From positions 184,547 through 248,546 of the forward strand of contig CAZRWP010000001.1 of the NCBI GenBank assembly GCA_964603945.1: DNA of 64,000 bases, written 5' to 3'. The DNA comes from an uncultured Pseudomonadales bacterium. GTDB lineage: Bacteria > Patescibacteriota > Microgenomatia > UBA1400 > UBA1396. The position numbers were made by a program, and so were the translations under genes. Of the stretch, positions 2,254-61,979 are shown in pieces; positions within the stretch are counted from its first letter, which is position 1, and every line of letters begins with the position of its first letter. The notes below the pieces were generated by a model. That model was not told the origin of the DNA. It was given only the letters and a program-made list of their open reading frames with translations, and made no database searches.

Positions 2254-3363
2254 TTACGTTGTTTGCTGTACTTTATCATGTTCGAGCTGATGGATGGCTA
2301 AGGTTTCATCTCGAACGTCAGGGGTTTGTTCACTGACTTTGCCCCGCGCCGTCAAATCTTCCTGAACCTGATCGCGCAGTTGTTTGGCCGATTCCAAATC
2401 CAACTTGGTTTTTTCCATCTGAACGGAGGCCTCCTGCCGATAAGCCGCCTCCTTGGCCGCCAATTCGGCTTTGAATTTAGCTTCCTCTTGCTCTTTTTGT
2501 AGTTTTTGCTGTTCCTCTTCGGTTTGCTTGGTTTTCTCGCTGTTGGCCTCGGCTAAAATCTCTTCCAAAATTTCTAGGGGTGATTTTTCACCGTCTGAGC
2601 TAGCTTCTGAGTTAGCTGATGAGGGTGCGGGAGAGGCGGTGTCTTGAGGGGCTTCCGATGGTTCAGAGGGTTCAGGCTGTGGTGGGTCGCTGTTGGCCGT
2701 TGGTTGATCTGGGGGCTGAATAGTTTCTAGTTGAGGAGTAGGTTCTGACTGAGGTGAATGCTCCAATTGAGGTGCAGGTTCTGGCTGAAGTTGTGTCTGC
2801 GGTTGAGGTGGAGCTTCCATTTGAGGCTGGCCTTGAGTTGCCGGCTCTTCAATTTTAGTTGCCGATTCTTCAACCTGGTCAAAACCCACCGTTTCCTTGG
2901 GAATCACCGAAGTATCTTGCTCGTCTGTCACAACCGGCGAGGCATAAGTTGGCGCGACATTGCGAGGAAAAGCATTGAAGAAATCCGGTGGCGCAGCCAC
3001 TGACGCGGCGTCTGGCGCACCCGCAGTCATGGCGGCATCCATTTCACCAGAGGGCAAAAAATTCGAATTGGCTGCCGGAGCAGAGTCGTGCGCCGCCTGG
3101 GCAGTTTCATTCGCAAATTGAGTATCAGAAATTAAGGGTGGTGTGGCGTTAGCCGGATTAGTCGTGGTGTTAGCTGGGGTCGGCGTGCCAGCTGATGAAT
3201 TATCAGCCGCGCCCGCGGAATTGTCAGCAGTAGCCGAGCCAGTTGTTAAATCACCAGACCCCGTATCTGCTGGCGGAACATATCCTGGCGGCGTGGTCGG
3301 ATCATCACTGGCTGTCACCACCGATGATTTGGCAAAATTCGTAATCCCCTGCGACTGGTCCAT
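2254..3363 (-). CDS. hypothetical low-complexity protein (Pro/Thr/Ala/Gln-rich N-terminal half, C-terminal coiled-coil)
   Basis: Long uninterrupted ORF co-oriented with cysS; PxxP/Q-rich repeats then EEQQKLQKEQEEAKFKAELAAKE heptad-like coiled coil; no signal peptide seen. Confidence 0.45.
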   Translation of the reverse strand: MDQSQGITNFAKSSVVTASDDPTTPPGYVPPADTGSGDLTTGSATADNSAGAADNSSAGTPTPANTTTNPANATPPLISDTQFANETAQAAHDSAPAANSNFLPSGEMDAAMTAGAPDAASVAAPPDFFNAFPRNVAPTYASPVVTDEQDTSVIPKETVGFDQVEESATKIEEPATQGQPQMEAPPQPQTQLQPEPAPQLEHSPQSEPTPQLETIQPPDQPTANSDPPQPEPSEPSEAPQDTASPAPSSANSEASSDGEKSPLEILEEILAEANSEKTKQTEEEQQKLQKEQEEAKFKAELAAKEAAYRQEASVQMEKTKLDLESAKQLRDQVQEDLTARGKVSEQTPDVRDETLAIHQLEHDKVQQTT

Positions 3364-3452: not shown

Positions 3453-4292
3453 CTACATGCCAATGTATTTTGTCGCCCTGGGTTCAACTCTAAAAAAGAG
3501 CTGATAATTTGTAATAAATGACATGCTTGAAGACTCGGGTTTGGTAGTTACCACGTAGGAAAATTCTTCCTCAGTATTGCTATATTTATGTATATATTCC
3601 AATAAAGCCAAAGAGGCAGAATTAATCTCCATTCCGCCTTCATCCGCCTCAATTTGGTATAAATTTTCTCCAAATTTTACTTGATTTTTTGGCAAATTAC
3701 CTAAGCTATTAAGACCTTGGTATTTGTCAATCAGTTGCCTTAACTCTGAAAATGTCGCTTCAAGTTGCTCTTGCTCGGTTGGTTCAGGTCGATTAAGAAT
3801 TGGAAAACTATCACTTAGCTCAGAATCATTGAATTTTCCGGTCTGAATTTCAATTAAAGTGAGTACAACCAGTGGATTAATGTCATAAGTTTGACCTAAT
3901 TCCAATAAATATTCAGGCAAATTTTGTTCGCCCACTTTTACATTTTCCAATAAATAGCTTTCATTGTATTGAAAATAGAAGTCATAGGATTCCATTAACT
4001 TAATTTTGGCGGCACTACTTATATCGTCATCATTTTCTTGATGACAACGGCTAAAACTAATCATGCAATCAGAAATGATTGGTTTTAAAACATATGGACT
4101 ATTCGTTGATGTATCTAAATTCTGGTCTGTTAGGGCAGAAAACTCATCATCAGCTATTTTAACTGTTTCATTTACATTGGCAAAAATTCCAAGCCTGTCC
4201 AGGCCAAGTAGCAACTTGTCCTTAAACAAAAACAGCCCTGAAACAAAAACTACAGTAATAATGAAAACAACAAAAAACTTTTTGTAGCTCAT
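3453..4292 (-). CDS. hypothetical membrane-anchored protein (N-terminal signal anchor)
   Basis: N-terminus MSYKKFFVVFIITVVFVSGLFLF hydrophobic helix; AT-rich promoter-like region upstream (4293-4512). Confidence 0.5.
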   Translation of the reverse strand: MSYKKFFVVFIITVVFVSGLFLFKDKLLLGLDRLGIFANVNETVKIADDEFSALTDQNLDTSTNSPYVLKPIISDCMISFSRCHQENDDDISSAAKIKLMESYDFYFQYNESYLLENVKVGEQNLPEYLLELGQTYDINPLVVLTLIEIQTGKFNDSELSDSFPILNRPEPTEQEQLEATFSELRQLIDKYQGLNSLGNLPKNQVKFGENLYQIEADEGGMEINSASLALLEYIHKYSNTEEEFSYVVTTKPESSSMSFITNYQLFFRVEPRATKYIGM

Positions 4293-4512
4293 GTAGTAAG
4301 TATACTCAATTCAATTATTACAATTCCAATGAGATTTTGTCTATATTTTTTAACTACAGACATTTTAAACTGCTTTGTGCTATTTTGTGTTAAAATTGAC
4401 TAGATGATGTTTGGGCATTTTGAATTAATATCAAGAGATGTTTTGCCAAGCAAAGTATTGGTTGTTGATAGTTATCCGTTGAAATTAAATTTCACAAAGA
4501 AAGAGAGTTGAT

Positions 4513-6639
4513 ATGGCTAGTATGAAAGAACTAATTGCATCCGCGTTAGCTGTCACCGGCTTAGTGGCCGGCCCTGTCGCTGAAGTTACCGCTGAATCTC
4601 CACAAGACACCACGCCTCCAGATAGTGAAAAACGTATGGCAGATCTGCTTGATGCGGAAGAACTTGGAAAAATGGATAATATTGACTACCAGAATGCGAA
4701 TAGAAATTTAGAACAACCATCTTCCGTCGAGCGCCAACAAGCATCCAAATTGTATGAAATTCCCCAAACGCCAGTAGATGAGGCAACCTGGACTGCTTTA
4801 TTTAGCTTTGCGCCAGCTGGCAAAGAGGCTCAACTTAATCAGCCAGTGGCGTCATTTAACTTTAATTTTGAGATGGGTCCAGGTATTCAACCAATGCAAG
4901 CTAGCGACATTTTGCCTGGCGGCGGCAGTCTAGCCCAAGAAATTCAGCGAGTATTAAACGCCTTGCAATCACAAAACGCCCAAGGCAAGTTTCAACTCGA
5001 CATTTCACTAAACACCCAAACCCGCAACGCTGGCGTAACTATCCACACTCTGGAACAAGGATTAATCGGTCAAATTGAACTAAACGGTGGTTCGGCTTTA
5101 TCAGTTGACCAACTACAACAGCCCCATTACCTGGAAACCGGCAAGATCTTTAATCAAAACGGCGAGCAAATCGCCGAGGTCGCCAGTGTTGAAGTCGTCC
5201 TTTACAGCTCAGTAGCAATGTTTTTACCAGCCTTTAACCACGACCCCAACGCCCTAGTTATGGTTGGACTAGACCAGCAAGGCAATGTGGCTGTAGTCAT
5301 TACTGATGAAATTCCCTTGTTAGTCGCACCGCTGAGCAAGATGACGCTTGCTCAAAATACCAATGTTAGAGCTTTGCCCGACACCAGTTCTAATATTTTC
5401 ACCACTCTGCAAGCTGGAGAGACTGTTAATTTAGCCACTTATGATCAAGTTATTGCCATCTTGGGGGCAATTCAATTGCCCAACGGAAAAATCATTACTA
5501 ATAACCAAGCCATAAATGCGGCGGAAGTTTATGACGGAGCAAATGTTTGGCGAGCCATTATTAGCCCAGATGCTGGAGAAATCCGGTGGTTAGCTATTTT
5601 GGGAACTCCTGGCTTAGAGTCGACCCCTACCCCTAAACCAGCCAATAGTGACATTGTGATGGCGAATTTTAGCCAGGGAGAGGTTAGTGTAGAGGTGCCA
5701 GTGGAAACCTCTCCAATTGAAACCCAAACCTTTTCGCGCGAACAAGTGCTTGAGCTAAACGAAAGTTATGCTGAAGCGCTGGCTGAACTTGGTCAAGATT
5801 GGCCAGTTTACCAAGATGGCGTTATCAATATGGTTAATTTCTCTCCGGAAGAGTTTTATATCGTAGCCGATGAGCTACGCTTTATACAAAACGGACGAGA
5901 GTTTATCTGGACACCCAAAACTGGTTGGCTTATGGAACAGTTTCGAACGGATAATGGTTTAGCATTTTATTTGTCGATGCAATTTCTCGACTCTAAGTCC
6001 AGAGAAGCAATCGGCGTTAGAGGCACTGGTCTGGAAGATTTAACCTATCCGGTTGCCGTTATTCCCGGCGATGGGATTGATATGCATAACCATCCTGAGG
6101 AACCAGAATATGATGTCAGAAATTGGGAACAGATCATAAATATTTACGGCAATCACGAAGTTTCTTCTGTGCCCGGCATTCCGGCGATAGCCAAGGCGGT
6201 TGATTACACCTGGTATACAATTTACACGTATCAAACTAATCAACCTGCATTAAGTTTTGATGAATTTATAGCTAAGTTTAGATCAGGACAAGCTAATTTT
6301 AATATTAGTTTTAACGGGCAAGAATTACTAATCACGCCTGAAACTAAACTGCAATTCAGAGCCGCTCCCAATTCTCGTGATGTAACGTCGAATGAGTATG
6401 TCAACTCAGCAGGAGAAATAGTAAATCTTACTGAAAGTACCGGTTACCGAGATTGGTTTGTTAATCAAGACATTGTTGGTTTATTGTGGGATATATATAA
6501 AAATAATGTTCCTAGTCAAGATGAGATGCTGTTTGCTTATGAGCTCATGCAGGTCATAATGCCCGTAACTGAGGATGGCTTACATCACCAGGCGCCAGCA
6601 GCCTTGATTGATGCCAATGGGAATATTATTAATAGGTAG
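4513..6639 (+). CDS. hypothetical secreted protein (708 aa, N-terminal signal peptide)
   Basis: Hydrophobic N-terminus ELIASALAVTGLVAGPVAEVTA; RBS-like GAAAGAGAG upstream; no recognizable catalytic motifs. Confidence 0.55.
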   Translation: MASMKELIASALAVTGLVAGPVAEVTAESPQDTTPPDSEKRMADLLDAEELGKMDNIDYQNANRNLEQPSSVERQQASKLYEIPQTPVDEATWTALFSFAPAGKEAQLNQPVASFNFNFEMGPGIQPMQASDILPGGGSLAQEIQRVLNALQSQNAQGKFQLDISLNTQTRNAGVTIHTLEQGLIGQIELNGGSALSVDQLQQPHYLETGKIFNQNGEQIAEVASVEVVLYSSVAMFLPAFNHDPNALVMVGLDQQGNVAVVITDEIPLLVAPLSKMTLAQNTNVRALPDTSSNIFTTLQAGETVNLATYDQVIAILGAIQLPNGKIITNNQAINAAEVYDGANVWRAIISPDAGEIRWLAILGTPGLESTPTPKPANSDIVMANFSQGEVSVEVPVETSPIETQTFSREQVLELNESYAEALAELGQDWPVYQDGVINMVNFSPEEFYIVADELRFIQNGREFIWTPKTGWLMEQFRTDNGLAFYLSMQFLDSKSREAIGVRGTGLEDLTYPVAVIPGDGIDMHNHPEEPEYDVRNWEQIINIYGNHEVSSVPGIPAIAKAVDYTWYTIYTYQTNQPALSFDEFIAKFRSGQANFNISFNGQELLITPETKLQFRAAPNSRDVTSNEYVNSAGEIVNLTESTGYRDWFVNQDIVGLLWDIYKNNVPSQDEMLFAYELMQVIMPVTEDGLHHQAPAALIDANGNIINR

Positions 6640-9195: not shown

Positions 9196-9231
9196 TTACG
9201 GTTCCACAAACTGAAGCTTGCATCCCCTGAT

Positions 9232-9448
9232 TACACTCTACCCTCAATCTGGAGATACCTGTTTGAGTACACTCTCCCCCTCAATCTGGAGATACCTGTT
9301 ATTCCTTGAGTACACTCTTGTTATTTTACTGTTTTTGTTAGTTTTGGAGACATATAAGGCAGGTAAAGTGGGTAAAAAACCTTAAAAATTCACCAAAATG
9401 GACAAGGGTGTGATCTGGTGATAAACGTTATCTCCAGATTGAGGGGAA
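9232..9448. repeat. repeat cluster: two direct copies (+ partial third) of a ~36-43 bp unit containing CCCTCAATCTGGAGATACCTGTT, plus an inverted copy 160 bp downstream (MITE-like)
   Basis: Direct units at 9232-9267, 9268-9310, partial 9311-9320; reverse-complement copy GTTATCTCCAGATTGAGGGGAAC at 9426-9448; AT-rich interior; sits between convergent genes. Confidence 0.6.
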
Positions 9449-9452
9449 CTTA

Positions 9453-10058
9453 TTAAATCTCTCTTCTTCCATCCAGCGCCCGAGCCAGGGTCACATTGTC
9501 CGCGTACTCAATGTCAGCGCCGATTGGCAGACCGTGCCCAATCCGAGTCACCTTGATATCTTCTTGGCTGTGGCCGGCGTCGCGAATAAGTTTCTCAATA
9601 TATAAAGCAGTGGCTTCGCCTTCCATGGTGGGGTTGGTCGCCAGAATCACTTCCTCAACTGAACCCAACCTCTGCAAAATATCCCGCAGATACAGCTGGT
9701 CTGGACCGATATTCTCCAAGGGACTAATAACGCCATGTAAAACGTGGTAAACGCCTTTGTAAGTGTCGGTTTGCTCAATCGCCAAAACGTCCAAAGGATT
9801 TTCCACCACGCAAAGCTTGGTCGTATCGCGCCGTGGATCGGCACAGACAAAGCAGGGAGACTCTTCGTCAATATTGTGACAAATTTCGCAAAATTTGGTG
9901 TTAGCTTTGAGCTGAGTCAGTGACTGGGCAAAATCCTCAATTACGTGATCCGGCACATGCAGAAGATAGAACGCCAGGCGCTGGGCAGATTTTGGCCCTA
10001 TACCGGGCAATTTCTCAAACTGTTCCACTACAGATCGTACCGGTCGAGGAAGTTTCAT
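9453..10058 (-). CDS. recR: recombination protein RecR
   Basis: N-terminal HhH (LPGIGPKSAQRLAFYLL), C4 zinc finger (CEICHNIDEESPCFVCAD), Toprim region; dnaX-ybaB-recR synteny. Confidence 0.9.
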   Translation of the reverse strand: MKLPRPVRSVVEQFEKLPGIGPKSAQRLAFYLLHVPDHVIEDFAQSLTQLKANTKFCEICHNIDEESPCFVCADPRRDTTKLCVVENPLDVLAIEQTDTYKGVYHVLHGVISPLENIGPDQLYLRDILQRLGSVEEVILATNPTMEGEATALYIEKLIRDAGHSQEDIKVTRIGHGLPIGADIEYADNVTLARALDGRREI

Positions 10059-10184
10059 GTCTTATAAATTTATTAACTGAGTTTGTGGTGCGCTGTCAGC
10101 ACGGCGTCTTGAGGCGTCCCAACCCTCCAATTTTGCTTTTTGTATTGGGAAAATCTTTATGTTCTCAACGCCAAAAGCAATTGC

Positions 10185-10472
10185 TTAGCGACCCATACCG
10201 CCCATCATACCGCCCAAACCGCCAGTCATTTCCTGGAGCTTTTTCGCGGCTAATTCCTGTGATTGTTTAATAGCTTTGTTAAGCGCCGTCACGGCTACGT
10301 CAGAAGTAATACCCTGAACACTGAACTCCTTGATGCGCTGATCACCGCTGATCACCACGCGGACATCGCCTTCTTCAATCACGATTTCCTCTTGAGCCAG
10401 TGCTTTCTGCATCTGCATTGCCTGCTGACGCAGTTTGTTCATGTCACCGAGAGCTTGTAATGGATTAGCCAT
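10185..10472 (-). CDS. ybaB: nucleoid-associated protein YbaB/EbfC
   Basis: 95 aa, typical YbaB sequence (MQMQKALAQEE...GDQRIKEF...), between dnaX and recR. Confidence 0.85.
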   Translation of the reverse strand: MANPLQALGDMNKLRQQAMQMQKALAQEEIVIEEGDVRVVISGDQRIKEFSVQGITSDVAVTALNKAIKQSQELAAKKLQEMTGGLGGMMGGMGR

Positions 10473-10587
10473 ATTCTCCTTCTGTTAAATGTTTCTTGTT
10501 TTATACGCGCGAACACGTGTTTTCTATTGTACCTTGTCTGCTGATAAATTCCTGATTGGATTGTTTCCAAGAAGAAACATTCTCCCA

Positions 10588-10680
10588 AGAAGGATCATCC
10601 TTGCCCTTAGTTTCCTCAAGAAGGATCATCCTAGGATGATCCTTCCAGGCAAGCGGATGGGCAAGGATGATCCTTCCAGG
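10588..10680. repeat. ~90-bp nested palindromic intergenic repeat element, copy 1 (inverted orientation relative to copies 2 and 3)
   Basis: Four copies of 12-mer GAAGGATCATCC in alternating orientation with central perfect palindrome GGATCATCCTAGGATGATCC; near-identical to 13102-13190 and 61848-61935. Confidence 0.85.
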
Positions 10681-10789
10681 CTAAACATTCTCAAATATCA
10701 CAAAAAATGCCCTAGAATCAGCACATTTCAAAGATGTTCAAATATGTTCAAAGCTGTTTGAGCCGCTTAAGAACTAGCTTAAAACCAAT

Positions 10790-12490
10790 CTAAACCCCAT
10801 CTTCCAAATTCATCACCGCGGATTCCACCGCCTGGATCAGCTGATCTTCGCTTTCTTTAGCCGCCTCTGCTGAGACATCTTTGACCGGCTTGACCAAGGA
10901 ACAACGGAAATCGACTTCAGCTTGAAAACACTCAGTCAAGGCACGCTTAAACATGTCCTTGTATTTGGGTGATTCTAATTTTTCCTGATGAAAGCCCATA
11001 TCAAAACACACCTCAATTTCCTGATTTGCTACCTGGCCTAAACTGGCATTTCTAAGCAGAGATTCCAAAATCGGACTTTGTGTACGAGAAGTTAGCAGAA
11101 GTTTATTCCAAGCAGATTCAACCTGCTGACGAGATAAGGGATTATTTAATTTTTGTTTTGCAGACGAACCATTTTTTGCTGAAATCGCCTCATTTGCCGA
11201 CGAATCCATCGCCACCGCTTCAACGGCCTCAACCTCTGCAATCGCCTCCACATCTGTAATCGCTTCAACCTCTGCCACCACGCTGACATCATCCTTAACT
11301 AGCGGGATGGCCGGTTTTTGATCATTTTTTTTTACGCGGTTGGCGCTGGATTCAGTTTTTTGAGAAGAGTTTGGTTTATCAGGCTTTTTTTTTGTTTTTG
11401 ACGAACTTGCTTGATCAGTGTTTATTTTGTTTTCACCGCCATTTGCTCCAGACTCGCCATTTTCCGCCAAACACCAATCCAGACAAGCCAGTTCAAGCTT
11501 CAGGCCATCAATCGGCTCATAACCGCCAACCCGATCCGCCAAATGCCCAAGTAATCTGGCAATGTGGGAAATGGTCGCGGCCGGTTCCGGCCGTTCAATT
11601 GCCCGGTGCAAGCGCTCCTGCAACTGGTAAAACACCGCTTGTTCTAGGACGGCACTATCTAGGCCGCGCTGGCGATATTCTTGAAAAAACCCAGAAACAG
11701 CCGCCACATCTTTTTTGGCCAAATGCTTGAGCAGGGCAAGACTATCATCTGGACTGCCGGCAATTCGCTTGAGTTGCTCTTCATCAACCGCCTGCTCCTG
11801 TACTACCGCTTCAAAATACTTAACGGCGTCACGGAAACTGCCCTGAGCGGCAACAATAAGTTTCTGCCGAGCCTCTGCCGATAATTTGATTTTTTCTTGT
11901 TTAGCAATTACGTCTAAAACAGCCGTAATCTCATCTGGAGTTGCCTGCCGGAAACGAACCACCTCACACCTGGATTGCACCGTCGCCGGTATCTTGTGAG
12001 GCTCAGTGGTGGCTAAGACGAAAACGACCCGTTCTGGCGGCTCCTCGAGCATCTTTAGCAAGGCATTGAAGGCCTCAGTCGTCAACATGTGGACTTCATC
12101 CAAAATGACTACTCTAATCAAGCCTTCGCTGGGCACCACCGAAATTTGCTCCTGTAGCAAGCGAATATCATCAATTCCGCGGTGGCTGGCGGCGTCCTGC
12201 TCCAGTACCACCTGGGAACGTCCCAAGGCAATCTTCTGCAAAATCGGATCATCGCTGTCGGGTTCTTTAAGCGGACCGGACTGTTTTAAAACTTTTTTAC
12301 TATTGGCAGGATCATTTAGAATTCTGGCCAAAATGCGCGCAGCCGAGGTTTTGCCCGTACCCTTGGGACCAGCAAAAATGTAAGCGTGGGCATAGCGCCC
12401 TGATTTCAAAACACCCTGCAGATACTCTCTAACCGGAGCTAGAGCTAGCTCAGAAACCTTCTGCGGGCGATAAAGTCGATACCATGCCAT
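10790..12490 (-). CDS. dnaX: DNA polymerase III subunit tau/gamma
   Basis: Walker A GPKGTGKTSAARILA, clamp-loader AAA+ domains, Lys/Ser-rich linker then C-terminal tau domains; see finding on A9 tracts. Confidence 0.9.
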   Translation of the reverse strand: MAWYRLYRPQKVSELALAPVREYLQGVLKSGRYAHAYIFAGPKGTGKTSAARILARILNDPANSKKVLKQSGPLKEPDSDDPILQKIALGRSQVVLEQDAASHRGIDDIRLLQEQISVVPSEGLIRVVILDEVHMLTTEAFNALLKMLEEPPERVVFVLATTEPHKIPATVQSRCEVVRFRQATPDEITAVLDVIAKQEKIKLSAEARQKLIVAAQGSFRDAVKYFEAVVQEQAVDEEQLKRIAGSPDDSLALLKHLAKKDVAAVSGFFQEYRQRGLDSAVLEQAVFYQLQERLHRAIERPEPAATISHIARLLGHLADRVGGYEPIDGLKLELACLDWCLAENGESGANGGENKINTDQASSSKTKKKPDKPNSSQKTESSANRVKKNDQKPAIPLVKDDVSVVAEVEAITDVEAIAEVEAVEAVAMDSSANEAISAKNGSSAKQKLNNPLSRQQVESAWNKLLLTSRTQSPILESLLRNASLGQVANQEIEVCFDMGFHQEKLESPKYKDMFKRALTECFQAEVDFRCSLVKPVKDVSAEAAKESEDQLIQAVESAVMNLEDGV

Positions 12491-12595
12491 GTCTAATTGG
12501 AGTTATACCGTTATGTGAGTCGCGGGGCAAGCTGAATGTGTTCCAAATCTCCTGCCCGTTCACCTCTATAACTGTTCCCCTATAATAGCGATAGC

Positions 12596-13087
12596 ATGAG
12601 ACGAACGCAAATCAGTGTCACCGTATTTTTAAAATGCCAATCAAAGTATTTATTTTTACTGAGATCCCCAGAGCGAACCGTTGACGCCAACCGGCTAAAC
12701 GGCATCGGCGGCAAGGTGGAATCCGGCGAAAATTTCCTTGATACTGCCCTGCGCGAAACTCAGGAAGAAACCGGTTATTTGGTAACGGCTGAGCAAACCA
12801 GGTGGGCTGGAATGGCCAACTTGGAAGGCGGTTATCCAGTCGATTGGATTACTGTCTTTTTTGTAATTGAAGTAGATTCACTTGAAATTCCCGTCGGCCA
12901 CGATACCCGTGAAGGCCAGCTGATGTGGCTCAAACCAGACGAAGTTTTGAGCTCAAAGCATGAATTGGTTGATGATCTATATTTGATCTGGCCTCTCGTG
13001 ATTAAACAACAACCATTTTTCTTGCAAGCAACCTTAAACGACCAAGAAAAAATAGCTAAGCATTCTTTAACGATTTTGCCTAAGTAG
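12596..13087 (+). CDS. NUDIX hydrolase
   Basis: Nudix box GGKVESGENFLDTALRETQEETG (GX5EX7REUXEEXGU). Confidence 0.75.
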   Translation: MRRTQISVTVFLKCQSKYLFLLRSPERTVDANRLNGIGGKVESGENFLDTALRETQEETGYLVTAEQTRWAGMANLEGGYPVDWITVFFVIEVDSLEIPVGHDTREGQLMWLKPDEVLSSKHELVDDLYLIWPLVIKQQPFFLQATLNDQEKIAKHSLTILPK

Positions 13088-13101
13088 TTTTTTATTAAAC
13101 T

Positions 13102-13190
13102 GAAGGATCATCCTTGCCCCTCCGCTTGCCTGGAAGGATCATCCTAGGATGATCCTTCTTGAGGAAACTACGGGCAAGGATGATCCTTTC
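13102..13190. repeat. ~90-bp nested palindromic intergenic repeat element, copy 2
   Basis: Same element as 10588-10680 and 61848-61935. Confidence 0.85.
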
Positions 13191-13250
13191 TTACAAACAA
13201 GCTTCATTCGCCATCAAACGACTAACAATTAAAAATATTCTTTAAACTCC

Positions 13251-13415
13251 AATGAAAATTTTGATCTTTCCGACGAGACATATGGCTTTAGCCATCGTCC
13301 TAACCAACGCGAGACTTATTCCGACGAAACTTAGAGCTTTAGCTCTCGTAGAAAGATCATTACTCAAATGAAAATTTTGACCTTTGCGACGAGACACATG
13401 GCTTTAGCCATCGTC
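13251..13415. repeat. two ~49-bp direct repeats plus a related middle unit, each forming a bulged hairpin (GACGA..ATGGC-TTTA-GCCAT..TCGTC); likely terminator/structured 3' region of rplM-rpsI operon
   Basis: 13251-13299 and 13367-13415 near-identical (AATGAAAATTTTGA(T/C)CTTT(C/G)CGACGAGACA(T/C)ATGGCTTTAGCCATCGTC); variant hairpin AGAGC-TTTA-GCTCT at 13321-13349. Confidence 0.55.
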
Positions 13416-13436
13416 GAGGAGAAAAGTGTCAAAATT

Positions 13437-13961
13437 TTAACGCTTCGGACTCTGTCTCTTGGAGCGAGCTTTACCACCTCGACCTGGCTTACGGCTTTCC
13501 TTCATCCGTGGGTCACGGGTGAGGAAACCGGCATCACGCAGAGGCTTCTTGTAGTCAGCGTCAACTTTAACTAAAGCGCGGGAAATACCCATGATGACAG
13601 CTTCTAGTTGAGCCGCTGAGCCTGAGCCGCTAGTCTTAACCGAAACGGCATATTTGCCCAAAGTATTGGTAACACGAAAAGGAGCTGTAAATAGCTTTTC
13701 CGGATCAATCACTGAGTTGAAATGTTCAACCATGGTTCGGTCATTAATAATGTAATCACCAGGCTGCATGTACAAACGAACTCTGGCGGTAGCATTCTTG
13801 CGACGGCCAATAGCGACCAAATACTCACCCTGAGGCAAGCTCATCGCCTGGCGGTTAGAACTAGCACTGGCTCGTGCCGACTTCTTAGCCGATACGCGAG
13901 GTTGTTGCTTTTTAACTACCCTTTGGACTTTGCTTGCTGATTTCTTGAACTGTTTTGCCAT
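13437..13961 (-). CDS. rpsI: 30S ribosomal protein S9 with ~40-aa Lys-rich N-terminal extension
   Basis: C-terminal S9 signature GGGxSAQ..AxxMGISRAL...GFLTRDPRMKESRKPGRGGKARSKRQSPKR. Confidence 0.9.
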   Translation of the reverse strand: MAKQFKKSASKVQRVVKKQQPRVSAKKSARASASSNRQAMSLPQGEYLVAIGRRKNATARVRLYMQPGDYIINDRTMVEHFNSVIDPEKLFTAPFRVTNTLGKYAVSVKTSGSGSAAQLEAVIMGISRALVKVDADYKKPLRDAGFLTRDPRMKESRKPGRGGKARSKRQSPKR

Positions 13962-20230: not shown

Positions 20231-21022
20231 TTACTTTGTTTCTTCCGCTTTGGCTGGTTTGTCAGCTTTCTCAGCTGGCTTGTCAGCTTTCTTGGCCGGT
20301 TTAGCTGTTGATTTAGCTGGCTTGGCGGGTTCAGCTTTTTTGTCAGCAGGTTTGGCGGCTGGTTTATCAGCCTTCTTGTCAGATTTTTTAGCTGGTTTAT
20401 TAGCTGGTTTGTCAGCTTTCTTAGCAGTTTGGGCGCTTTCATCGGCGGCGGCTTTATCGGCGGCGGCCTTCTGCTGAGCTTCGCGCTGGAGCTCGCGCTC
20501 TTTCTGGCGCTCTTCTTCCTCTTCTTGAGCAATTGATTTAAGCTGAATGCCTTTTACATCAACAATCTGACGAATTTTTTGCAAGGCAATAAAAGTAGTA
20601 TAAACATTTGAAGCTTTATTATCTGTACCCAGAATTTTGCTTGAGATATCACGAATGCCGGCCGCTTCAACTACAGCTCTGACCGGTCCGCCAGCAATAA
20701 CTCCTGATCCTGATGGCGCAGGCTTGAGCATAATGCGAGAAGCACCACTCTTCACTTCAATCGGGAAAGGAATTGTTGAACCATCCATCGGCACCATTAA
20801 CATGCGTTTTTTGGCTTTGCGAGCACCCTTGCGAATTGCACTCAAAACATCAGGTGCTTTACCTAGACCAACGCCGACTTTTCCTTGTCGGTCACCGACC
20901 ACCATCAACACGGCGAAACCCATTTTGTTTCCACCTTTAGTTTTTTTGGATACGCGGTTAACTTGGACGACTTTCTCGTCAAAGTTGCTGTCACTGCCGC
21001 GGCGATCATTTCCTCTGGCCAT
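20231..21022 (-). CDS. rpsE: 30S ribosomal protein S5 with ~95-aa Lys/Ala-rich C-terminal extension; no L30 gene between S5 and L15
   Basis: S5 dsRBD and C-domain (…VVQVNRVSKKTKGGNKMGFAVLMVVGD…); only 8 nt to rplO. Confidence 0.9.
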   Translation of the reverse strand: MARGNDRRGSDSNFDEKVVQVNRVSKKTKGGNKMGFAVLMVVGDRQGKVGVGLGKAPDVLSAIRKGARKAKKRMLMVPMDGSTIPFPIEVKSGASRIMLKPAPSGSGVIAGGPVRAVVEAAGIRDISSKILGTDNKASNVYTTFIALQKIRQIVDVKGIQLKSIAQEEEEERQKERELQREAQQKAAADKAAADESAQTAKKADKPANKPAKKSDKKADKPAAKPADKKAEPAKPAKSTAKPAKKADKPAEKADKPAKAEETK

Positions 21023-25320: not shown

Positions 25321-25875
25321 TTATTTCTTTGTCTCTTTTTTACTGGCCGATTTAGCGGCTGTAGATGATTTTGCGTTTTTTGTTTTAGCAGTTGTTTTAG
25401 CTTTTGGTTTAGCTTTAGAGTCAACTTCTGTCTTAGGGTCTGATTTAGGTAAAGATTTTTCTTTGGTTGACTCTGCTTTAGTGGCAGACTTAGCCTCTGG
25501 CTTGGTGGCTGGCTCAGCTTTGGACTCAGTTTTAACCTCAGTTTCTGGTGACTCCAGCTCAACTACTACGTGAGAGGTTCGTAAAACGTAGGGTTTGGCC
25601 TGGCCACGAGCACCAGCACGGAAGCGACGGAACTTTGGTCCTTCATTAATCATCAAAGTCTTAAGAACTAAAGTGTCCTCTGGTAAGCCAAGGTTATTAA
25701 CAGCGTTAGCAACGGCTTGACGAATAGTCTCGTTAATTACCTGAGCGCCACGCTTATTTAAGCTAGACAAAATCAGATTGGTCTCAGCTAGATCCTTGCC
25801 ACGAACTGTATCGGCAACTAACCGTAACTTACGGGGAGTAATCCAACTGGTAGATTGTTTGGCTTTAATAATCAT
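25321..25875 (-). CDS. rplV: 50S ribosomal protein L22 with ~70-aa Lys/Ala-rich C-terminal extension
   Basis: L22 core followed by KTESKAEPATKPEAK… tail. Confidence 0.9.
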   Translation of the reverse strand: MIIKAKQSTSWITPRKLRLVADTVRGKDLAETNLILSSLNKRGAQVINETIRQAVANAVNNLGLPEDTLVLKTLMINEGPKFRRFRAGARGQAKPYVLRTSHVVVELESPETEVKTESKAEPATKPEAKSATKAESTKEKSLPKSDPKTEVDSKAKPKAKTTAKTKNAKSSTAAKSASKKETKK

Positions 25876-27300: not shown

Positions 27301-28169
27301 GCTGATACCTCTTTCTCGGTCTTGACCGATTTTTTGGCACTGGCAGAAGCCTTACTCTTGGTTGTTTTCTTAACAGCCCTAGTGGCTGGTTTGGCAGACT
27401 TCTTGGTCTCTTCAGATTTATCAGCTGTCTTAGTGGCTGATTTAGCGGCTGGCTTAGCTGAAGTTTTGGCGGCTGGTTTCTCAGCGGTTTTTTTAGCAGT
27501 AGGCTCAACAGCAGTTGTTTTAGCTGATTTATCAGTAGAATTCAATAATCGCTGTTCAAGTACTTCTAGGGCTTCCTTAAAGATAACCACTTTATCAGCA
27601 CTGGCAACTTCATAGGCATTTACCCTGTCAGCTCTGGTAAGTTCAACTTCTGGCAAATTAGCCGCGGCTAAACGGAACTGAGCATAATCACCAGCAATGA
27701 TGAAAAGTACGCGGTCGGTTCGGTCTTCACTAATACGCACATAAGCGTCTTGAGCTTCCTTGGTCTTACCGGTAAAACCTTTTAGACCATCAGCCAACAT
27801 AACGTTGTCGTATGAGGCAGTTATGCCAAGCGCACTACGCAGGGCGGCCGACTTCATTTTTTGTGATAGTTTCTTAGTAAAGTTTTCCTGACCAGTTGGA
27901 CCAAACACCACACCACCACCAATAAAAATGTTGCTCGTGCGGGCACCGTGACGGGCGCGGCCGGTACCTTTTTGCTTGTACCACTTGGTTTTGGTTCGGC
28001 TAACTTCACTGCGGGTTTGGACTTTAGCCCCACCCTGACGTTGATTACTGCGATAAATATAAACTGCCTGAGACAATAATTCGGGGTTAATTGGTCCAAA
28101 TAAGGCCTCATTAACCTCAACGGAAGTTGTCCGCTTAGCGCCGGTTAGGTTTACTTGTGATAATTTCAT
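27297..28169 (-). CDS. rplD: 50S ribosomal protein L4 with ~90-aa Lys/Ala-rich C-terminal extension
   Basis: L4 core; tail AKTTAVEPTAKKTAEKPAAK…. Confidence 0.9.
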   Translation of the reverse strand: MKLSQVNLTGAKRTTSVEVNEALFGPINPELLSQAVYIYRSNQRQGGAKVQTRSEVSRTKTKWYKQKGTGRARHGARTSNIFIGGGVVFGPTGQENFTKKLSQKMKSAALRSALGITASYDNVMLADGLKGFTGKTKEAQDAYVRISEDRTDRVLFIIAGDYAQFRLAAANLPEVELTRADRVNAYEVASADKVVIFKEALEVLEQRLLNSTDKSAKTTAVEPTAKKTAEKPAAKTSAKPAAKSATKTADKSEETKKSAKPATRAVKKTTKSKASASAKKSVKTEKEVSA

Positions 28170-45030: not shown

Positions 45031-45106
45031 GAGCCACGGGCGGGATTCGAACCCGCGAATCCGAGGTTTTGCAGACCTGGCCGTTAGACCGCTTCGGTAC
45101 CGTGGC
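45031..45106 (-). tRNA. tRNA-Cys (anticodon GCA), CCA not encoded; irregular anticodon stem (bulge/mismatch)
   Basis: Minus-strand read GCCACGG..CCGTGGC acceptor (7 bp), T-arm GCGGG-TTCGAAT-CCCGC, anticodon loop CUGCAAA, 3-bp D-stem and U73 discriminator typical of tRNA-Cys. Confidence 0.7.
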
Positions 45107-46549: not shown

Positions 46550-46600
46550 GTGGATAAAGTATAGCAGAGGGTGATGCTTCAAAAAGGATCAACAATTGTA

Positions 46601-46700
46601 AGCCTCACTTACACTGAGTGCACCTCAAGGAAGCCTCACCCAGGTGAGGCTTCCTTGAGGAAGAGTGCGTGTAAGTAAGGCTTACAATTGCCAATTCCAA
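46601..46700. repeat. 100-bp nested perfect palindrome (outer ~20-bp stem CAATTGTAAGCCTCACTTACAC / GTGTAAGTAAGGCTTACAATTG; inner 18-bp stem CCTCAAGGAAGCCTCACC-CAG-GTGAGGCTTCCTTGAGG) at left boundary of GC-rich island
   Basis: Read directly; followed by two ~33-bp imperfect direct repeats at 46728-46797. Confidence 0.8.
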
Positions 46701-47209: not shown

Positions 47210-47629
47210 ATGAGCAAGGAAGACACGCCGCTCCAGATGGATATGTTCTCCGGGAAGCTGGTGGACAACCGGACGCGCCAGCAAAAGCGGCAAGACAAGA
47301 CGCGGGAGCAGCCCAAGCAAATCGAGATGTTTTCCCAGCGGGAGATTGCCCAGTTTGGGGTCAATCCAAATCCACTCATGCCGCTCTCACCCAACACCAA
47401 GCTGCTGCTGATTCCCGAAGACCCGCGCACCGAGGAGGAAATCGAGCAGGACAGGCAGCAAGAGGCCGAAAAACGGACGGCGCGGATGTTTGCTGAGCCG
47501 CCGCCCGCACAGGAGACCAAGTCACCGGAGACTATTAATGCCAAACTCGTGCCGGACACCACCGCGCTCGCCCTTGTGCCCAGGGGCGTTGTCGCGGTCG
47601 TCGTTTACGGCTTTTTCTCGCAGATTTAG
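47210..47629 (+). CDS. hypothetical disordered protein (139 aa), island-encoded
   Basis: ATG 3 nt after previous stop; Q/E/R/K-rich. Confidence 0.35.
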   Translation: MSKEDTPLQMDMFSGKLVDNRTRQQKRQDKTREQPKQIEMFSQREIAQFGVNPNPLMPLSPNTKLLLIPEDPRTEEEIEQDRQQEAEKRTARMFAEPPPAQETKSPETINAKLVPDTTALALVPRGVVAVVVYGFFSQI

Positions 47630-47720
47630 CCGTTATAATGGCCTTAGCGTGCTTGCTCCACTACCGGTCATCAGCGTTTCTCATCGAAACCGAAGGTACA
47701 GACTCCCACAAAGCTGGACA

Positions 47721-50700
47721 ATGAACCGGCGGGGCAAGTACGCCAGATTGCCGCTTCTCATTGGCGCGTTACTCCTTCTGACGCTCATTCCGTTTGCTCT
47801 CTTTCGCGGCTCCCAAGCTCCGGAAGCGGAAGCGGCGTGGTGGGACAACTCCTGGCGCTATCGCAAACCCATCCAGGTCACCAACAACACGACTCAGCAA
47901 ACCAACGTCTACATCACCCTCACTCTAGACACCTCAGATACCACCAAGTTCCAGGACGATTGCGGTGACCTGCGCTTCACCAAGCAAAATGGGCAAGTGT
48001 TGCCGTACTACATCGCTAGTGGCTGCGGTACAGCGTCCACTAGCGTACATGTTCAGCTTGATACGTTCCCGGCTGGAGCGCAGACGCTTTATGCCTACTA
48101 CGGGAATCCGTCAGCGCCAAATGGATTTGCTAATAACGACTTCCTGATGGAAGCCACCAACTACACCGTAGGTGGAACCGGAAGTGAGGAAATCGCTCCT
48201 GGTCCAGTTGCTTACTGGAAGTTTGATGAGGGAAGCGGGAGTACCGCGCATGATTCGGCGGGGAGTAATAACGGTAACATCAACGGCGCAACGTGGGTGA
48301 GTGAAGATCAATGTATAGATGGCAAGTGCTTAAATTTTGATGGATTGGACGACTCTGTATCGGCAACCAATCCTTCAAACTTTTGCACACTTCCTTCAAT
48401 AAGCTACGTTGCTTGGGTAAACAGCGACCTTGCTACCCAAAACAACTCTTCTGGAATCATCGTGAATCGACAGTTCAAGCTGACAGCGGGATCGGATTAT
48501 TCCTCTCGTATCTACCTTGAAGACGGTAGCGATGCCACTGTCTTAAAGCAAGTCTCAACGGGGATTCCACTCAATCAAAATGAATGGGATTTTGTGGCAA
48601 CCACTTTTGATCTCGCCGAGGGAAAAATCCACATCTATCTCAACGGCAACTTGATGGCATCAGAATCATTTGATTCCGCCGGACTGACTCTCAATGATGA
48701 TTACTGCACAGCATTGGTCTTGGGAAATGATTACGATAGTAGTAATCGTAAATTTGACGGATACCTTGACGAAGTCAAAATCTTCCCCTACGCCCTGACC
48801 GAAGATGAAATCAAAGCCGAGTACAACCTTGGGGCAGCCGCGGTGATCGGTACCGGGCCAGCGGCTCCGCCGCCATTGGGTGGCAACCTCGATGACTCGC
48901 TGGTGGCTCACTGGGCATTTGACGAACAATCAGGCCAGACCGCGCACGACAAGGTAGGCACCAATCACGGCACCTTGGGCGCGGACACCAATCCGGGGAG
49001 CGATGACCCGACCTGGAAGTCTGTGAGTGAGTGTAAGGTGAATGGGTGTTTGGGGTTTGATGGTACGAACAACTTTATCACCAACTCAAGTCCCGAGAAC
49101 TTGCCAACTGGATCTCAAGCCACTTGGACGTGGTGGTCAAAATCAAGTGCAACGGGATGGAGTGCAAACGCGCTTCTTGGAGACAATAGGTCTCTATGGT
49201 CGATTAGGCAATCGAGTAATTATCTTTATCTAGGGCTAGGAGGAGAAGAGTCTGGCGCAACAGCATCTTTCTCGACGGATGTTAACTGGAGTCATTATGC
49301 TATCACCTTTAATTCTGGTAGCGCTTCTTTCTTCAAGAATGGTGAGATGATCGGCAATTACAGCTTCGCCAACACAACAGTACCAGCGCTTAGCACTCTA
49401 TATGTTGGGAGACGATCGACTGTTGCAGCCCCTTATTTCTTTAACGGCCTCATCGACGAAGTCAAAATCTACAACACCGCCCTCACCCCTGAGCAAGTCC
49501 TCCAGGACATGAACGCCGGCGCCAGTCTCACGGTGGGCGTGGGCGCCGACGAGGCCGACGAGATCATCGACGGCGCGGGCGCTCCGCCGATTGCCGAGTG
49601 GAAGTTTGACGAGAACCAGGGCACGACCGCCTACGACACCAGCGGCAACGGTAACGACGGCACGGTTAATGGAGCGACCTGGAAATCGGGTTGTCAGCAG
49701 GGAGCGTGCTTGGAGTTTGATGGGAATAACCGTATATCTATATCAAATGATCCAATTCTATCCCCTAATCAAGTTACAGTAGGCGTATGGGCAAGACTAT
49801 CTCCTTCATTCAATAGTTGGGGTTATTTAGTTGCCAAAGAATGGGGTTATTCAGGATATGCACTTTATGTGGCTGCGGATAGAAGACCTGTATTCATAAC
49901 TAACGATGGTTCATCTCCGCAAAATATTAATTACGGAAGTACCAATTTGGAGAAAGGCAAATGGTACTATTTGGTTGGAACCTATGACGGAACCAAATCA
50001 ACGATCTACGTTGATGGAGTTTCTGAAAACGTTCAGAGTTTTGACATGGTTCAAAGCTCTTCGACGCTTTTCTTAGGTAATCATGGGGATAATACACGAG
50101 GTTTCAACGGCCAAATCGACCACATCAAAATCTACGACTACGCCCGCACGCCAGCTCAAATTGCCTACGACTACAATCGCGGTGCGCCCGTTGCTCACTG
50201 GAGGTTTGACGAGTGTGAAGGCACCGTCGCCCACGACTCATCTGGCAACGGCAATCACGGCACGATCAACATCGGCCCGTCTGGGAGCCAGAGTACGGCA
50301 GGAACGTGCCAGACTTCCGGCGCGTGGGCCAATGGGAAAGATGGGAAGTTTAATGGGAGCTTGAATTTTGATGGGACGGATGATGTGGTTAACCTTGGCA
50401 ATCCTTCGCGCATAGCAAACTTGAGCACCAATATTACTGCGGCTGTTTGGATTAAACCGACATCTGGCGGTGGAGTATTGTACCGAGGAGCAGGTTCAAA
50501 TTATAATTATTTATTGCAGATTGAGTCTAGCTCACAAATAAGACTAAGGCTTTGGGAAACATTGGGAGATGCTGGATCTGGCATCAATTATCTGGTGCCT
50601 GGACTTAACCTATTTAATTCATGGAATCACATAGCTTTTACTTATGACGGTAATAGTGTGAAAATTTTCGTTAATGCGGAATTGAAAAGCAACACACCCC

Positions 50701-50879
50701 GTTCCGCACCTATCGCAACTGGTGAAACTACCCAGCTGGGTGAATATCCAGGTGGAGGACCTCGCTATTTAACTGGCCAAATCGACGACGTGCGCATCTA
50801 CAACTACGCCCTGTCACCAGCCCAAATCTTGAAGGTCTATAACCAGGGCCAAGCCGTTAACTTCACCCGCGCGAACTGA
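47721..50879 (+). CDS. large membrane-anchored surface protein: N-terminal signal anchor, DUF2341-like domain, four LamG_3 (concanavalin A-like lectin) domains
   Basis: Start chosen at ATG 47721 (MNRRGKYARLPLLIGALLLLTLIPFALF); AWWDNSWRYRKPIQV…DCGDLRF motif (DUF2341-like); four repeats each beginning W(K/A/R)FDE..G.TA.D.SGNGN.GT.NGATW and ending DEV(K/R)I(F/Y).YAL(T/S)..(E/Q)I. Confidence 0.75.
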   Translation: MNRRGKYARLPLLIGALLLLTLIPFALFRGSQAPEAEAAWWDNSWRYRKPIQVTNNTTQQTNVYITLTLDTSDTTKFQDDCGDLRFTKQNGQVLPYYIASGCGTASTSVHVQLDTFPAGAQTLYAYYGNPSAPNGFANNDFLMEATNYTVGGTGSEEIAPGPVAYWKFDEGSGSTAHDSAGSNNGNINGATWVSEDQCIDGKCLNFDGLDDSVSATNPSNFCTLPSISYVAWVNSDLATQNNSSGIIVNRQFKLTAGSDYSSRIYLEDGSDATVLKQVSTGIPLNQNEWDFVATTFDLAEGKIHIYLNGNLMASESFDSAGLTLNDDYCTALVLGNDYDSSNRKFDGYLDEVKIFPYALTEDEIKAEYNLGAAAVIGTGPAAPPPLGGNLDDSLVAHWAFDEQSGQTAHDKVGTNHGTLGADTNPGSDDPTWKSVSECKVNGCLGFDGTNNFITNSSPENLPTGSQATWTWWSKSSATGWSANALLGDNRSLWSIRQSSNYLYLGLGGEESGATASFSTDVNWSHYAITFNSGSASFFKNGEMIGNYSFANTTVPALSTLYVGRRSTVAAPYFFNGLIDEVKIYNTALTPEQVLQDMNAGASLTVGVGADEADEIIDGAGAPPIAEWKFDENQGTTAYDTSGNGNDGTVNGATWKSGCQQGACLEFDGNNRISISNDPILSPNQVTVGVWARLSPSFNSWGYLVAKEWGYSGYALYVAADRRPVFITNDGSSPQNINYGSTNLEKGKWYYLVGTYDGTKSTIYVDGVSENVQSFDMVQSSSTLFLGNHGDNTRGFNGQIDHIKIYDYARTPAQIAYDYNRGAPVAHWRFDECEGTVAHDSSGNGNHGTINIGPSGSQSTAGTCQTSGAWANGKDGKFNGSLNFDGTDDVVNLGNPSRIANLSTNITAAVWIKPTSGGGVLYRGAGSNYNYLLQIESSSQIRLRLWETLGDAGSGINYLVPGLNLFNSWNHIAFTYDGNSVKIFVNAELKSNTPRSAPIATGETTQLGEYPGGGPRYLTGQIDDVRIYNYALSPAQILKVYNQGQAVNFTRAN

Positions 50880-51547: not shown

Positions 51548-51814
51548 CTAGCGGGTGTCTTTTCGTTTCTTCTGCTTCGCTTTATTGCTTGCCGGTTCAG
51601 TGCGCACTATTAGATCAAGGGTAGCAATTCCCAAAACTGCGGCCAGCCTGTCGAGAGTGTCGAGATCTGGACGGACGACTGGTTCAGTTTTTAGACGGTG
51701 TAAAGTGCTTAATGAAATACCCGCTTTCTTGGCTAGTTCAGTGTAAGTTAGCCGGCGTTGATTCTCGACTTCCCATCTAAATATGTGTTTGTCAATATCC
51801 AGCCAATACGGCAT
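51548..51814 (-). CDS. XRE-family helix-turn-helix transcriptional regulator (88 aa)
   Basis: HTH segment LTYTELAKKAGISLSTLHRLKT typical of XRE/Cro-C1. Confidence 0.7.
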   Translation of the reverse strand: MPYWLDIDKHIFRWEVENQRRLTYTELAKKAGISLSTLHRLKTEPVVRPDLDTLDRLAAVLGIATLDLIVRTEPASNKAKQKKRKDTR

Positions 51815-51874
51815 ATAGCTCCTTGGTTTTTCTACTTGTTTTGTAATATTTCTTTGAAATTATATCAAACCAGG

Positions 51875-54693: not shown

Positions 54694-54760
54694 ATCGACC
54701 CCATTCGGCAGTATCAAGGTTAAGCTAACACCATTCGGCAGTATCAAGGATGATCAGATA
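54671..54760. repeat. three tandem 30-bp units (19-bp conserved CCATTCGGCARTATCAAGG + 11-bp variable) starting in the last 7 codons of ldh
   Basis: Units at 54671, 54701, 54731. Confidence 0.75.
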
Positions 54761-55884: not shown

Positions 55885-56043
55885 AACCAGCTGAGGAAAG
55901 ATACAAAAAAGCCCGCTGGGTGATGCCAGTTCTCTTGGCGTTAAGCGTGCTTTTATCTTTATATTTCTGGACCCAAGGCTAAGATTAGCCAATATTATCC
56001 AAGATTAGCCAAGATTTAGCCAAAATAATCCAATACTAGCCAA

Positions 56044-61847: not shown

Positions 61848-61935
61848 GAAGGATCATCCTTGCCCCACCTCTTGCCTGGAAGGATCATCCTAGGATGATC
61901 CTTCTTGAGGAAACTGCGGGCAAGGATGATCCTTC
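61848..61935. repeat. ~90-bp nested palindromic intergenic repeat element, copy 3
   Basis: Same element as 10588-10680 and 13102-13190. Confidence 0.85.
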
Positions 61936-61950
61936 ATTTTGCACCACGAA

Positions 61951-61979
61951 AAAGCCCCCGACTAGCGAGGGCTTTTTAG
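61951..61979. terminator. bidirectional rho-independent terminator (AAAGCCCCCG…GAGGGCTTTTT) between murJ and pilin array
   Basis: GC stem followed by T5 on + strand and A-run on − strand. Confidence 0.65.

Follow-up and report, generated by a model that had tools for sequence, protein, structure and literature searches.

The 64,000-nucleotide stretch of DNA analysed here (contig CAZRWP010000001.1 of GenBank assembly GCA_964603945.1, positions 184,547 to 248,546, hereafter the window) carries a nested palindrome of 87-88 nt at three intergenic sites, one of them between dnaX and ybaB, and the question raised by this locus is what kind of element the repeat is and what keeps it dispersed. We propose that it is probably a family of non-autonomous elements of the REPIN type (hairpin-forming doublets of REPs, palindromic sequences that are repetitive and extragenic) served by a tyrosine transposase resembling RAYTs, the tyrosine transposases associated with REPs.

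The three copies were found where a first-pass annotation of the sequence had placed them, and its estimate of more than 90% identity agrees with pairwise values of 94-98%. More specifically, a repeat finder aligned copies 2 and 3 at 97% identity, and copy 1 is complementary to copy 2 (98%) and to copy 3 (94%), that is, inverted with respect to both, as had been described. Each copy is laid out as an 18-nt arm, a 13-nt spacer, a perfect palindrome of 26 bp (and not 24 bp, as first reported), a second 13-nt spacer and the inverted 18-nt arm, with the arm starts 70 nt apart; the two spacers of one element are not complementary to each other. The 12-mer proposed as the building block of the element is indeed enriched in it, since at up to two mismatches it has 20 matches in the window, compared to 4.4 +/- 2.3 in shuffled sequences (none of 100 shuffles reached 20), and 18 of the 20 fall within the three elements, where the last unit of copy 2, AAAGGATCATCC, has one mismatch. 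This 12-mer is part of a 13-nt palindrome, AAGGAT[C/G]ATCCTT, so its orientation is set by the central base alone, and the arrow pattern that had been drawn for the units reflects that base only. A link with methylation, suggested by the density of GATC, found no support: the window has 229 GATC sites compared to about 247 expected, and the 12 sites in the elements are a consequence of the repeated 12-mer. Three of the five CCTAGG sites of the window are those of the elements. Both strands fold as a two-tier hairpin. The energies predicted for RNA of the two strands are -54 to -62 kcal/mol (z -7.4 to -9.7), and single-stranded DNA reaches about -29.5 kcal/mol (z -8.3 to -9.5).

The family is not confined to the window. 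The central 20-mer of the element had no match in 185,579 GTDB species representatives (one genome per species) and none in the IMG/VR viral contigs, and it was found on 34 JGI metagenome contigs from four samples. Further contigs (JGI, ENA and Logan) were fetched by exact matches to three proteins encoded beside the window copies, YbaB, the NUDIX protein and a pilin-like protein, and the contigs carrying the element belong to the same or closely related organisms. The window and the metagenome contigs together gave 48 element copies, which is not a count per genome, as the contigs may stem from several strains or species. These copies fall into 28 flank classes, corresponding to 27 loci because two of the classes are the two orientations of the dnaX-ybaB locus, so that confinement to the three window sites, which the first-pass annotation would have taken as a sign against a functional role, gives way to at least 27 loci. 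All of them are intergenic, with flanking genes that are convergent, tandem or divergent. Many short contigs start or end within the element, as expected of a multicopy repeat in assembly.

The proteins encoded on the element-bearing contigs were screened for candidate partners of the repeat. A search for a REP-associated tyrosine transposase, which had been recommended from the sequence of the window, was positive: outside the window, on the related contig L042, an open reading frame of 144 aa (4104-4538) has its start codon 42 nt past an element copy (3975-4061). The protein matches Pfam Y1_Tnp with an E-value of 1.4e-3 (19 bits, gathering cut-off 23) and has REP_Tyr_transpos (NF047646, REP-associated tyrosine transposase) as its sole NCBIfam match with an E-value of 1.4e-6 (28 bits, cut-off 80); 62 of 63 sampled relatives match REP_Tyr_transpos and no other NCBIfam family. 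A profile built from the protein and four homologues from a word index ranked E. coli TnpA-REP (4er8) first among PDB sequences, with ISDra2 TnpA next, and found 30,926 cluster representatives at E <= 1e-3. The AlphaFold model of the protein (pLDDT 80, pTM 0.78) had 30 PDB structure matches at E <= 0.001, every one a Y1 transposase, and among these 4er8 was the best superposed (TM-score 0.65, rmsd 3.0 A). The HUH motif (NHFHF), the catalytic Tyr in K-Y-I-L-S-N-P (Y-x3-NP) and an N-terminal YHVYNRG are conserved, and the Asn of the Y-x3-NP motif is, in TnpA-REP, the counterpart of the IS608 Gln (PMC6006769). Judged by its profile matches and its modelled fold, the 144-aa protein is a putative divergent Y1 transposase of the RAYT branch, below the curated thresholds. 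On every contig recovered for near-identical proteins its neighbours are constant, in the order opposite-strand 23S rRNA, element, gene and PfkB, and the Logan contigs of the locus begin inside the upstream element. The constant neighbours and the syntenic related contigs fit a single-copy, vertically inherited gene.

Homologues of this gene were found beside palindromes of their own, and the Y1 association was observed in three lineages. The locus of the 78% identical homologue (L141/L142) is syntenic with L042, and a variant element made of the same 13-nt units stands 44 nt upstream of the gene; on L141 the arm feet are altered on both sides, from GCCC/GGGC to GGGGG/CCCCC, with pairing preserved, and the centre is CCTAAG. 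The 49% identical homologue (L143, NCBI assembly GCA_964385325.1) has nested palindromes on both sides with quite different stems (centre GAGAAGTTCTTAAGAACTTCTC, outer arms GGAATATCTTT/AAAGATATTCC). The spacers of its downstream copy are AGTTTCCTCAAG and CCAGG, motifs also present in the window element; AGTTTCCTCAAG occurs in the copy 1 spacer TTAGTTTCCTCAA and recurs in the L143 element despite the other stems. A 31% identical homologue (L145) lies in a classical REPtron, with four CATAGGAC[G/C]GTCCTATG copies, two upstream, one in the gene and one at the gene end. No such palindrome was found at the homologue on L144 or at its 68% identical relative on L022, each of which adjoins a tRNA gene. 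A constant gene with a lineage-specific adjacent palindrome is the defining signature of the REP/RAYT association (PMC3116915, PMC5581495, PMC6006769).

Two side observations concern these genes. The gene on L022 (988-1425, +) is a paralogue, and thus a second Y1/RAYT-like gene, which shares 40% identity with the one beside the element and 68% with P0004 (the gene on L144 is at 502-939). Inverted repeats of some 30 nt, GCCCGTCAC(TT/CA)GATTATAGTCTCTCC, enclose it at about 905-940 and 1413-1445, and an element copy lies 1.15 kb from it. In addition, a motif TTTTGTAAG(T/A), in L141 TGTAAGA, is found 20-35 nt before the ATG of all five RAYT-like genes (L042:4075-4085, L141, L143, L144 and L022), and the element copies at sites 1, 13 and 25 end in CCTTTCTTACAAA (reverse complement TTTGTAAGAAAGG); the motif may represent the -10 region of a promoter or the relic of a recognition site.

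In order to describe how the element varies, differences from the consensus were measured per position over 24 distinct complete loci. The left arm showed 1.0% and the right arm 2.3% differences per position, the spacer bases beside the arm feet 17-20%, and the spacer bases beside the central stem 4.8% (TTGCCTG) and 3.2% (TTGAGGAAA). The central palindrome showed none, an invariance that is partly built in, as most contigs were recovered through the central 20-mer; the copies recovered through proteins likewise have a perfect centre. The unpaired bases beside the central stem are thus conserved nearly like the stems, which points to a sequence-specific recognition beyond hairpin stability.

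No target-site duplication was found at the sites examined, where the two flanks share direct repeats of at most 3-7 nt, at no fixed position (a length given without a null comparison). The sole longer one, 10 nt at dnaX-ybaB, does not abut the element ends: it is a direct repeat of AAACATTCTC, at 10575-10584 and 10683-10692, lying 4-6 nt outside the ends of copy 1 and absent at the other loci, and is therefore not a general target-site duplication. Outside the G...C at the ends the flanks showed no conserved motif; the bases beside the arm foot vary, with TTAG as their consensus.

The interior of the element was found in both orientations at the same site. At the dnaX-ybaB locus, four contigs (L001, L003, L005 and L006) have flanks identical to those of the window but carry the 52-bp interior, from arm to arm, as its exact reverse complement. 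A diverged strain (L004) has the same interior orientation as these four, and L002, L007 and L019 agree with those five, so that the window alone is opposite to at least eight assemblies. At the NUDIX/S9 locus, the window and seven contigs have one orientation and L138 (Logan, SRR36368337) has the other, with identical flanks. The inversion is thus clean at two of the three window loci. The copies adjacent to the RAYT-like gene on L141 and L042 are apparently also opposite in orientation, as judged by spacer similarity. A further candidate is L027 compared to L038, where one intergenic region holds the element in opposite orientations. As the sequences directly beside it differ, this case was considered ambiguous and was not taken as a clean inversion.

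We also considered whether the flips could be artefacts of assembly. As the 18-nt arms are shorter than the assumed k-mers (k is presumably 31 for Logan, and we take the "k141" contig names to indicate a larger k for the other assemblies), k-mers running from flank through arm into spacer must exist in the reads, and an artefact was judged unlikely by this reasoning. Some loci differ on a single side only. The copy at the MurJ locus on L131 and L127 differs from the window in one spacer and the adjoining flank, and in the comparison of L012/L023 with L016 (site 4) one element flank is common and the other flank or a spacer differs; these one-sided differences suggest exchange between copies, rearrangement or gene conversion with breakpoints inside the repeat.

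REPINs are defined by conserved inverted ends with a less conserved spacer between them, a length of about 100 bp and an extragenic location (PMC3116915; 10.1101/2021.07.10.451892). The repeat described here is likewise a short, multicopy, extragenic palindrome with opposed ends less than 130 bp apart, less conserved outer spacers and a hairpin fold, and the arrangement known as REPtron, in which the Y1 gene is flanked by the same repeat, was found on the related contigs, with the element on one side of the gene in L042 and L141 and with nested palindromes of other stems on both sides in L143. Most likely, a chromosomal RAYT-like Y1 (HUH/tyrosine) transposase acts in trans to propagate and preserve the family. 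The near-invariant inverted 18-nt ends and the central palindrome of the same 13-nt unit would fold single-stranded DNA into a long hairpin of two tiers. The enzyme, in analogy to E. coli TnpA-REP and IS200/IS605 TnpA, would recognise such hairpins and, with them, the conserved unpaired bases next to the central stem; cutting and rejoining would take place at the hairpins and leave no target-site duplication. We infer that the element is mobile, and that the putative Y1 protein may mobilise it by this single-strand mechanism.

The flip of the interior in place would probably have its simplest explanation in exchange or recombination, or replication template switching, between the inverted arms; an inversion by the Y1 enzyme itself is speculative. 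The motifs CTTGCCTGG and CTTGAGGAAA, unpaired beside the central hairpin, are common to elements with differing stems, and a self-inverting REPIN can be imagined in which the RAYT-like enzyme would read these motifs, cut both arms symmetrically and rejoin them, both copying the element and flipping its interior. We regard this version as unlikely on balance; if true, it would amount to a REPIN-RAYT partnership lasting in the streamlined genome of a candidate-phyla-radiation bacterium, and to a DNA polymorphism that is reversible site by site. No mention of a flipping interior was found in the REPIN literature searched. Whichever way it arises, in-place inversion can mislead assembly, strain typing and variant calling at element loci.

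Several points weigh against the REPIN/RAYT reading. The 144-aa protein scores well below both curated cut-offs, and on L042 and L141 the element stands on a single side of the gene. The pooling of contigs and the recovery through the central 20-mer, both described above, limit what the copy number and the invariant centre can tell. The canonical GT[AG]G (or CGTC) tag at the hairpin foot is not conserved, GTAG being present solely at the copy 2 locus. Look-ups with YbaB, the NUDIX protein and the pilin-like protein found no empty site within the species, since none of the assemblies examined lacks the element at any of the three window loci. One gene could adjoin one copy by chance, with a probability that we estimate at roughly 5-10%, though the association is recurrent in other lineages. 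Finally, the true partner could be the Y1 paralogue on L022. Regarding the tag, non-canonical REPs have been described for some subclasses (PMC6006769).

With regard to empty sites, the sole indirect sign of gain or loss comes from L045, which is the nearest of the sequenced relatives: its DnaX is 57% identical, and its ribosomal protein genes show about 75% nucleotide identity. This contig shares the gene order S9-NUDIX-dnaX-ybaB-recR, and no element was found in that gene block, where the intergenic regions are just 83, 48 and 18 nt long, 83 nt at the copy 2 locus and 48 nt at the copy 1 locus.

The system is probably of a known kind, with four-unit nesting, conserved loop motifs, in-place inversion and a non-proteobacterial host as its variant traits. 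With the REPIN-RAYT systems of Pseudomonas and Enterobacteria (including the BIMEs, bacterial interspersed mosaic elements, and the REPtron of E. coli) it shares a multicopy extragenic repeat of about 90-100 nt with conserved inverted ends and less conserved sequence between them, the folding of single-stranded DNA into a long hairpin, a Y1/HUH gene that adjoins a copy and keeps the same neighbours, a separate palindrome family for each gene homologue and the absence of target-site duplication. It differs from them in lacking a conserved GT[AG]G or CGTC tag, and in that its spacer holds a second perfect palindrome of 26 bp, giving four units instead of two, with a conserved centre. The unpaired bases beside the central stem are here conserved even where the stems differ, a single locus can carry the interior in either orientation, the protein is short (144 aa), divergent and sub-threshold, and the host is not a proteobacterium.

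Members of the IS200/IS605 family and their palindrome-associated miniature derivatives resemble this system in the enzyme fold, the hairpin ends in single-stranded DNA and the absence of target-site duplication. In these insertion sequences the left end differs from the right, and insertion takes place 3' of a tetra- or pentanucleotide that is fixed, whereas the element here has symmetric ends and no conserved flank beyond the G...C; moreover, the catalytic helix is Y-x3-N-P (N as in TnpA-REP) and not Q, and the gene on L042 or L141 is not bracketed as a transposable unit. The Correia (NEMIS), ERIC, BOX and RUP elements are alike in size class, terminal inverted repeats, intergenic location and transcript hairpins. 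For the Correia elements, duplication of a TA target and the presence of IHF sites or promoters set them apart, and we know of none of the four families being tied to a Y1 gene; sequence similarity to them was not detected (no Rfam match). The ~30-nt inverted repeats that bracket the paralogous gene on L022 recall the terminal-inverted-repeat-associated tyrosine transposases (TIRYTs), which form subclass 2.1 (PMC6006769). The L022 paralogue differs in not being adjacent to the element, and published TIRYTs carry a helix-turn-helix (HTH) domain, in contrast to the 144-145-aa proteins found here (PMC6006769).

The first-pass annotation had also suggested a reiterated binding site for a dimeric DNA-binding protein. 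The almost invariant units, standing among spacer parts that drift, could be read as an array of binding sites selected by the host, in which four AAGGAT[C/G]ATCCTT sites on one face of the helix would be kept for function by a dimeric nucleoid-associated protein or regulator. The unit centres are 31/11/31 bp apart, about 3, 1 and 3 helical turns, a spacing that fits whole turns, and E. coli REPs bind IHF, gyrase and DNA polymerase I (PMC6006769). However, no candidate protein was found, the copies stand in every gene context with no common class of neighbouring gene, and the element is missing at the same loci in L045. In addition, the stems of L143 and L141 change with pairing kept, which argues for a structure and not for a fixed duplex motif. 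We therefore consider a host-selected array decidedly unlikely as the origin of the repeat, and it does not exclude the REPIN reading, with which it is compatible. Protein-binding arrays and mRNA hairpins are both known as side functions of REPs, though the present data require neither.

The first-pass annotation had offered a MITE/REP-like mobile palindrome (MITE, miniature inverted-repeat transposable element). Its REP-like half is supported by the RAYT-like gene 42 nt from a copy and by the homologues beside palindromes. The other half, a classical MITE derived by deletion from an insertion sequence of the DDE type and moved by cut-and-paste through its 18-nt terminal inverted repeats, appears very unlikely. 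The 18-nt ends are indeed perfect terminal inverted repeats, and an IS1595-family DDE transposase is present in the community (L021), but the search for a DDE transposase whose ends match was negative: the IS1595 copy, which breaks up an element instead of sharing its ends, was rejected as the parent on that ground, and about 300 kb of related sequence contained no longer element with the same ends. The sites examined also lack a target-site duplication, the single 10-nt repeat at dnaX-ybaB standing apart from the ends. As a side observation, this transposase gene (L021:2299-3000, -; Pfam E-value 1.9e-34) lies beside a half element without left arm (3125-3181), which looks like an insertion sequence that landed within a copy.

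The genes around the window copies bear on a role in RNA. Copy 1 lies, as first annotated, between dnaX and ybaB, the genes of a 566-aa product (Pfam DNA_pol3_delta2/AAA) and of a 95-aa product (Pfam YbaB_DNA_bd), within an apparent dnaX-ybaB-recR operon. Copies 2 and 3 lie, as had been stated, between convergent genes, NUDIX (12596-13087, +) and ribosomal protein S9 (13437-13961, -) for copy 2, MurJ (60164-61834, +) and a T4SS-pilin-like gene (61994-62386, -) for copy 3, and they begin 14 and 13 nt past the upstream stop codons. These positions and the very stable RNA hairpins of both strands would suit a transcript element acting as terminator, attenuator, mRNA stabiliser (as some REPs do) or small RNA. 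Against this, several copies are flanked by divergent genes, a setting in which transcripts are not expected to end, the orientation flips without loss, there is no U-tract, and a terminator scan was blank at the elements. A GC-rich hairpin with a T run does follow copy 3, but as a separate structure (about 61949-61977). In Rfam 15 no match came up: the scan of the whole window used the gathering score, that of 9200-13500 a threshold of E <= 1. An element selected at the RNA level is thus highly improbable, and an RNA role would be at most a side effect of a dispersed repeat.

Least credible of all is an inverton, a programmed switch flipped by a site-specific recombinase to regulate its neighbours: both interior orientations do occur at two loci with identical flanks and a 209-aa tyrosine recombinase is encoded in the window (51875-52504), but the invertible segment is just 52 bp, with no convincing promoter found inside it by a promoter scan, the recombinase is 40 kb off, beside tRNA and Xre-type genes, and was rejected as the flipping enzyme since it looks part of an integrated element, and at least 27 dispersed loci in unrelated contexts are ill-suited to a dedicated switch.

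Under the REPIN/RAYT reading the host is of interest. The next-best full-length DnaX matches after L045 are metagenome-assembled genomes labelled Patescibacteria. The gene of ribosomal protein S5 is directly followed by that of L15, without L30 (19782-21022), which is typical of the candidate phyla radiation, and from these sequence features the host is probably a candidate-phyla-radiation bacterium. To our knowledge, REPIN-RAYT systems have been studied almost solely in Proteobacteria, where they have been argued to be long-lived, vertically inherited replicators and not ordinary selfish DNA. Genomes of the candidate phyla radiation are small and repeat-poor, and in our literature search no paper was found that ties REPINs or RAYTs to this group. 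A clear REPIN-RAYT case there would widen the host range, and a short regular element with a 144-aa partner, together with sister lineages that have altered stems and kept loop motifs, provides a natural experiment on enzyme recognition.

Table. Element copies in the window and the parts of copy 1 (positions in the window)
Feature	Position	Strand	Remarks
Element copy 1	10589-10676	-	dnaX-ybaB intergenic region; copies 2 and 3 have the interior in the opposite orientation
Copy 1 left arm, GAAGGATCATCCTTGCCC	10589-10606	+	REP-like end; pairs with 10659-10676
Copy 1 spacer, TTAGTTTCCTCAA	10607-10619	+	unpaired; reverse complement of spacer s2
Copy 1 central palindrome, GAAGGATCATCCTAGGATGATCCTTC	10620-10645	.	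26 bp, perfect; contains CCTAGG and two GATC
Copy 1 spacer, CAGGCAAGCGGAT	10646-10658	+	reverse complement of spacer s1
Copy 1 right arm, GGGCAAGGATGATCCTTC	10659-10676	+	
Element copy 2	13102-13189	+	arms 13102-13119 and 13172-13189; centre 13133-13158
Element copy 3	61848-61935	+	arms 61848-61865 and 61918-61935; centre 61879-61904

Other repeats were noted near the copies. The intergenic region of copy 2, downstream of both NUDIX and S9, is 349 nt long compared to 83 nt in L045, and it contains a 54-nt direct repeat (13246-13299 and 13362-13415, 93% identical, 116 nt apart). Between recR and a convergent gene of 820 aa, a 45-nt inverted repeat (9277-9321 and 9402-9446, 78% complementary, 80 nt apart) forms a separate palindromic structure with no sequence kinship with the element.

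Further away in the window, the tyrosine recombinase gene (- strand) adjoins an Xre-type HTH gene in the region 51548-52504. A tRNA gene (45032-45106, -) and a 48-nt inverted repeat (46593-46690, 85% complementary) lie about 6 kb from it, and the gene of a 1129-aa LamG-repeat protein (47490-50879) stands between the recombinase and this tRNA/inverted-repeat region; the recombinase region may be the remnant of an integrated element. Several ribosomal protein genes have Lys/Ala-rich repeat tails (20237-20451, 25335-25499 and 27369-27496; repeat families D1, D2, D4 and D7), which, like the missing L30, are compatible with a candidate-phyla-radiation host. Finally, tandem repeats were observed near gene ends at two places, with three units of 30 nt at 54665-54754 and three to four units of 10 nt, AAGATTAGCC/AATATTATCC, at 55981-56020.

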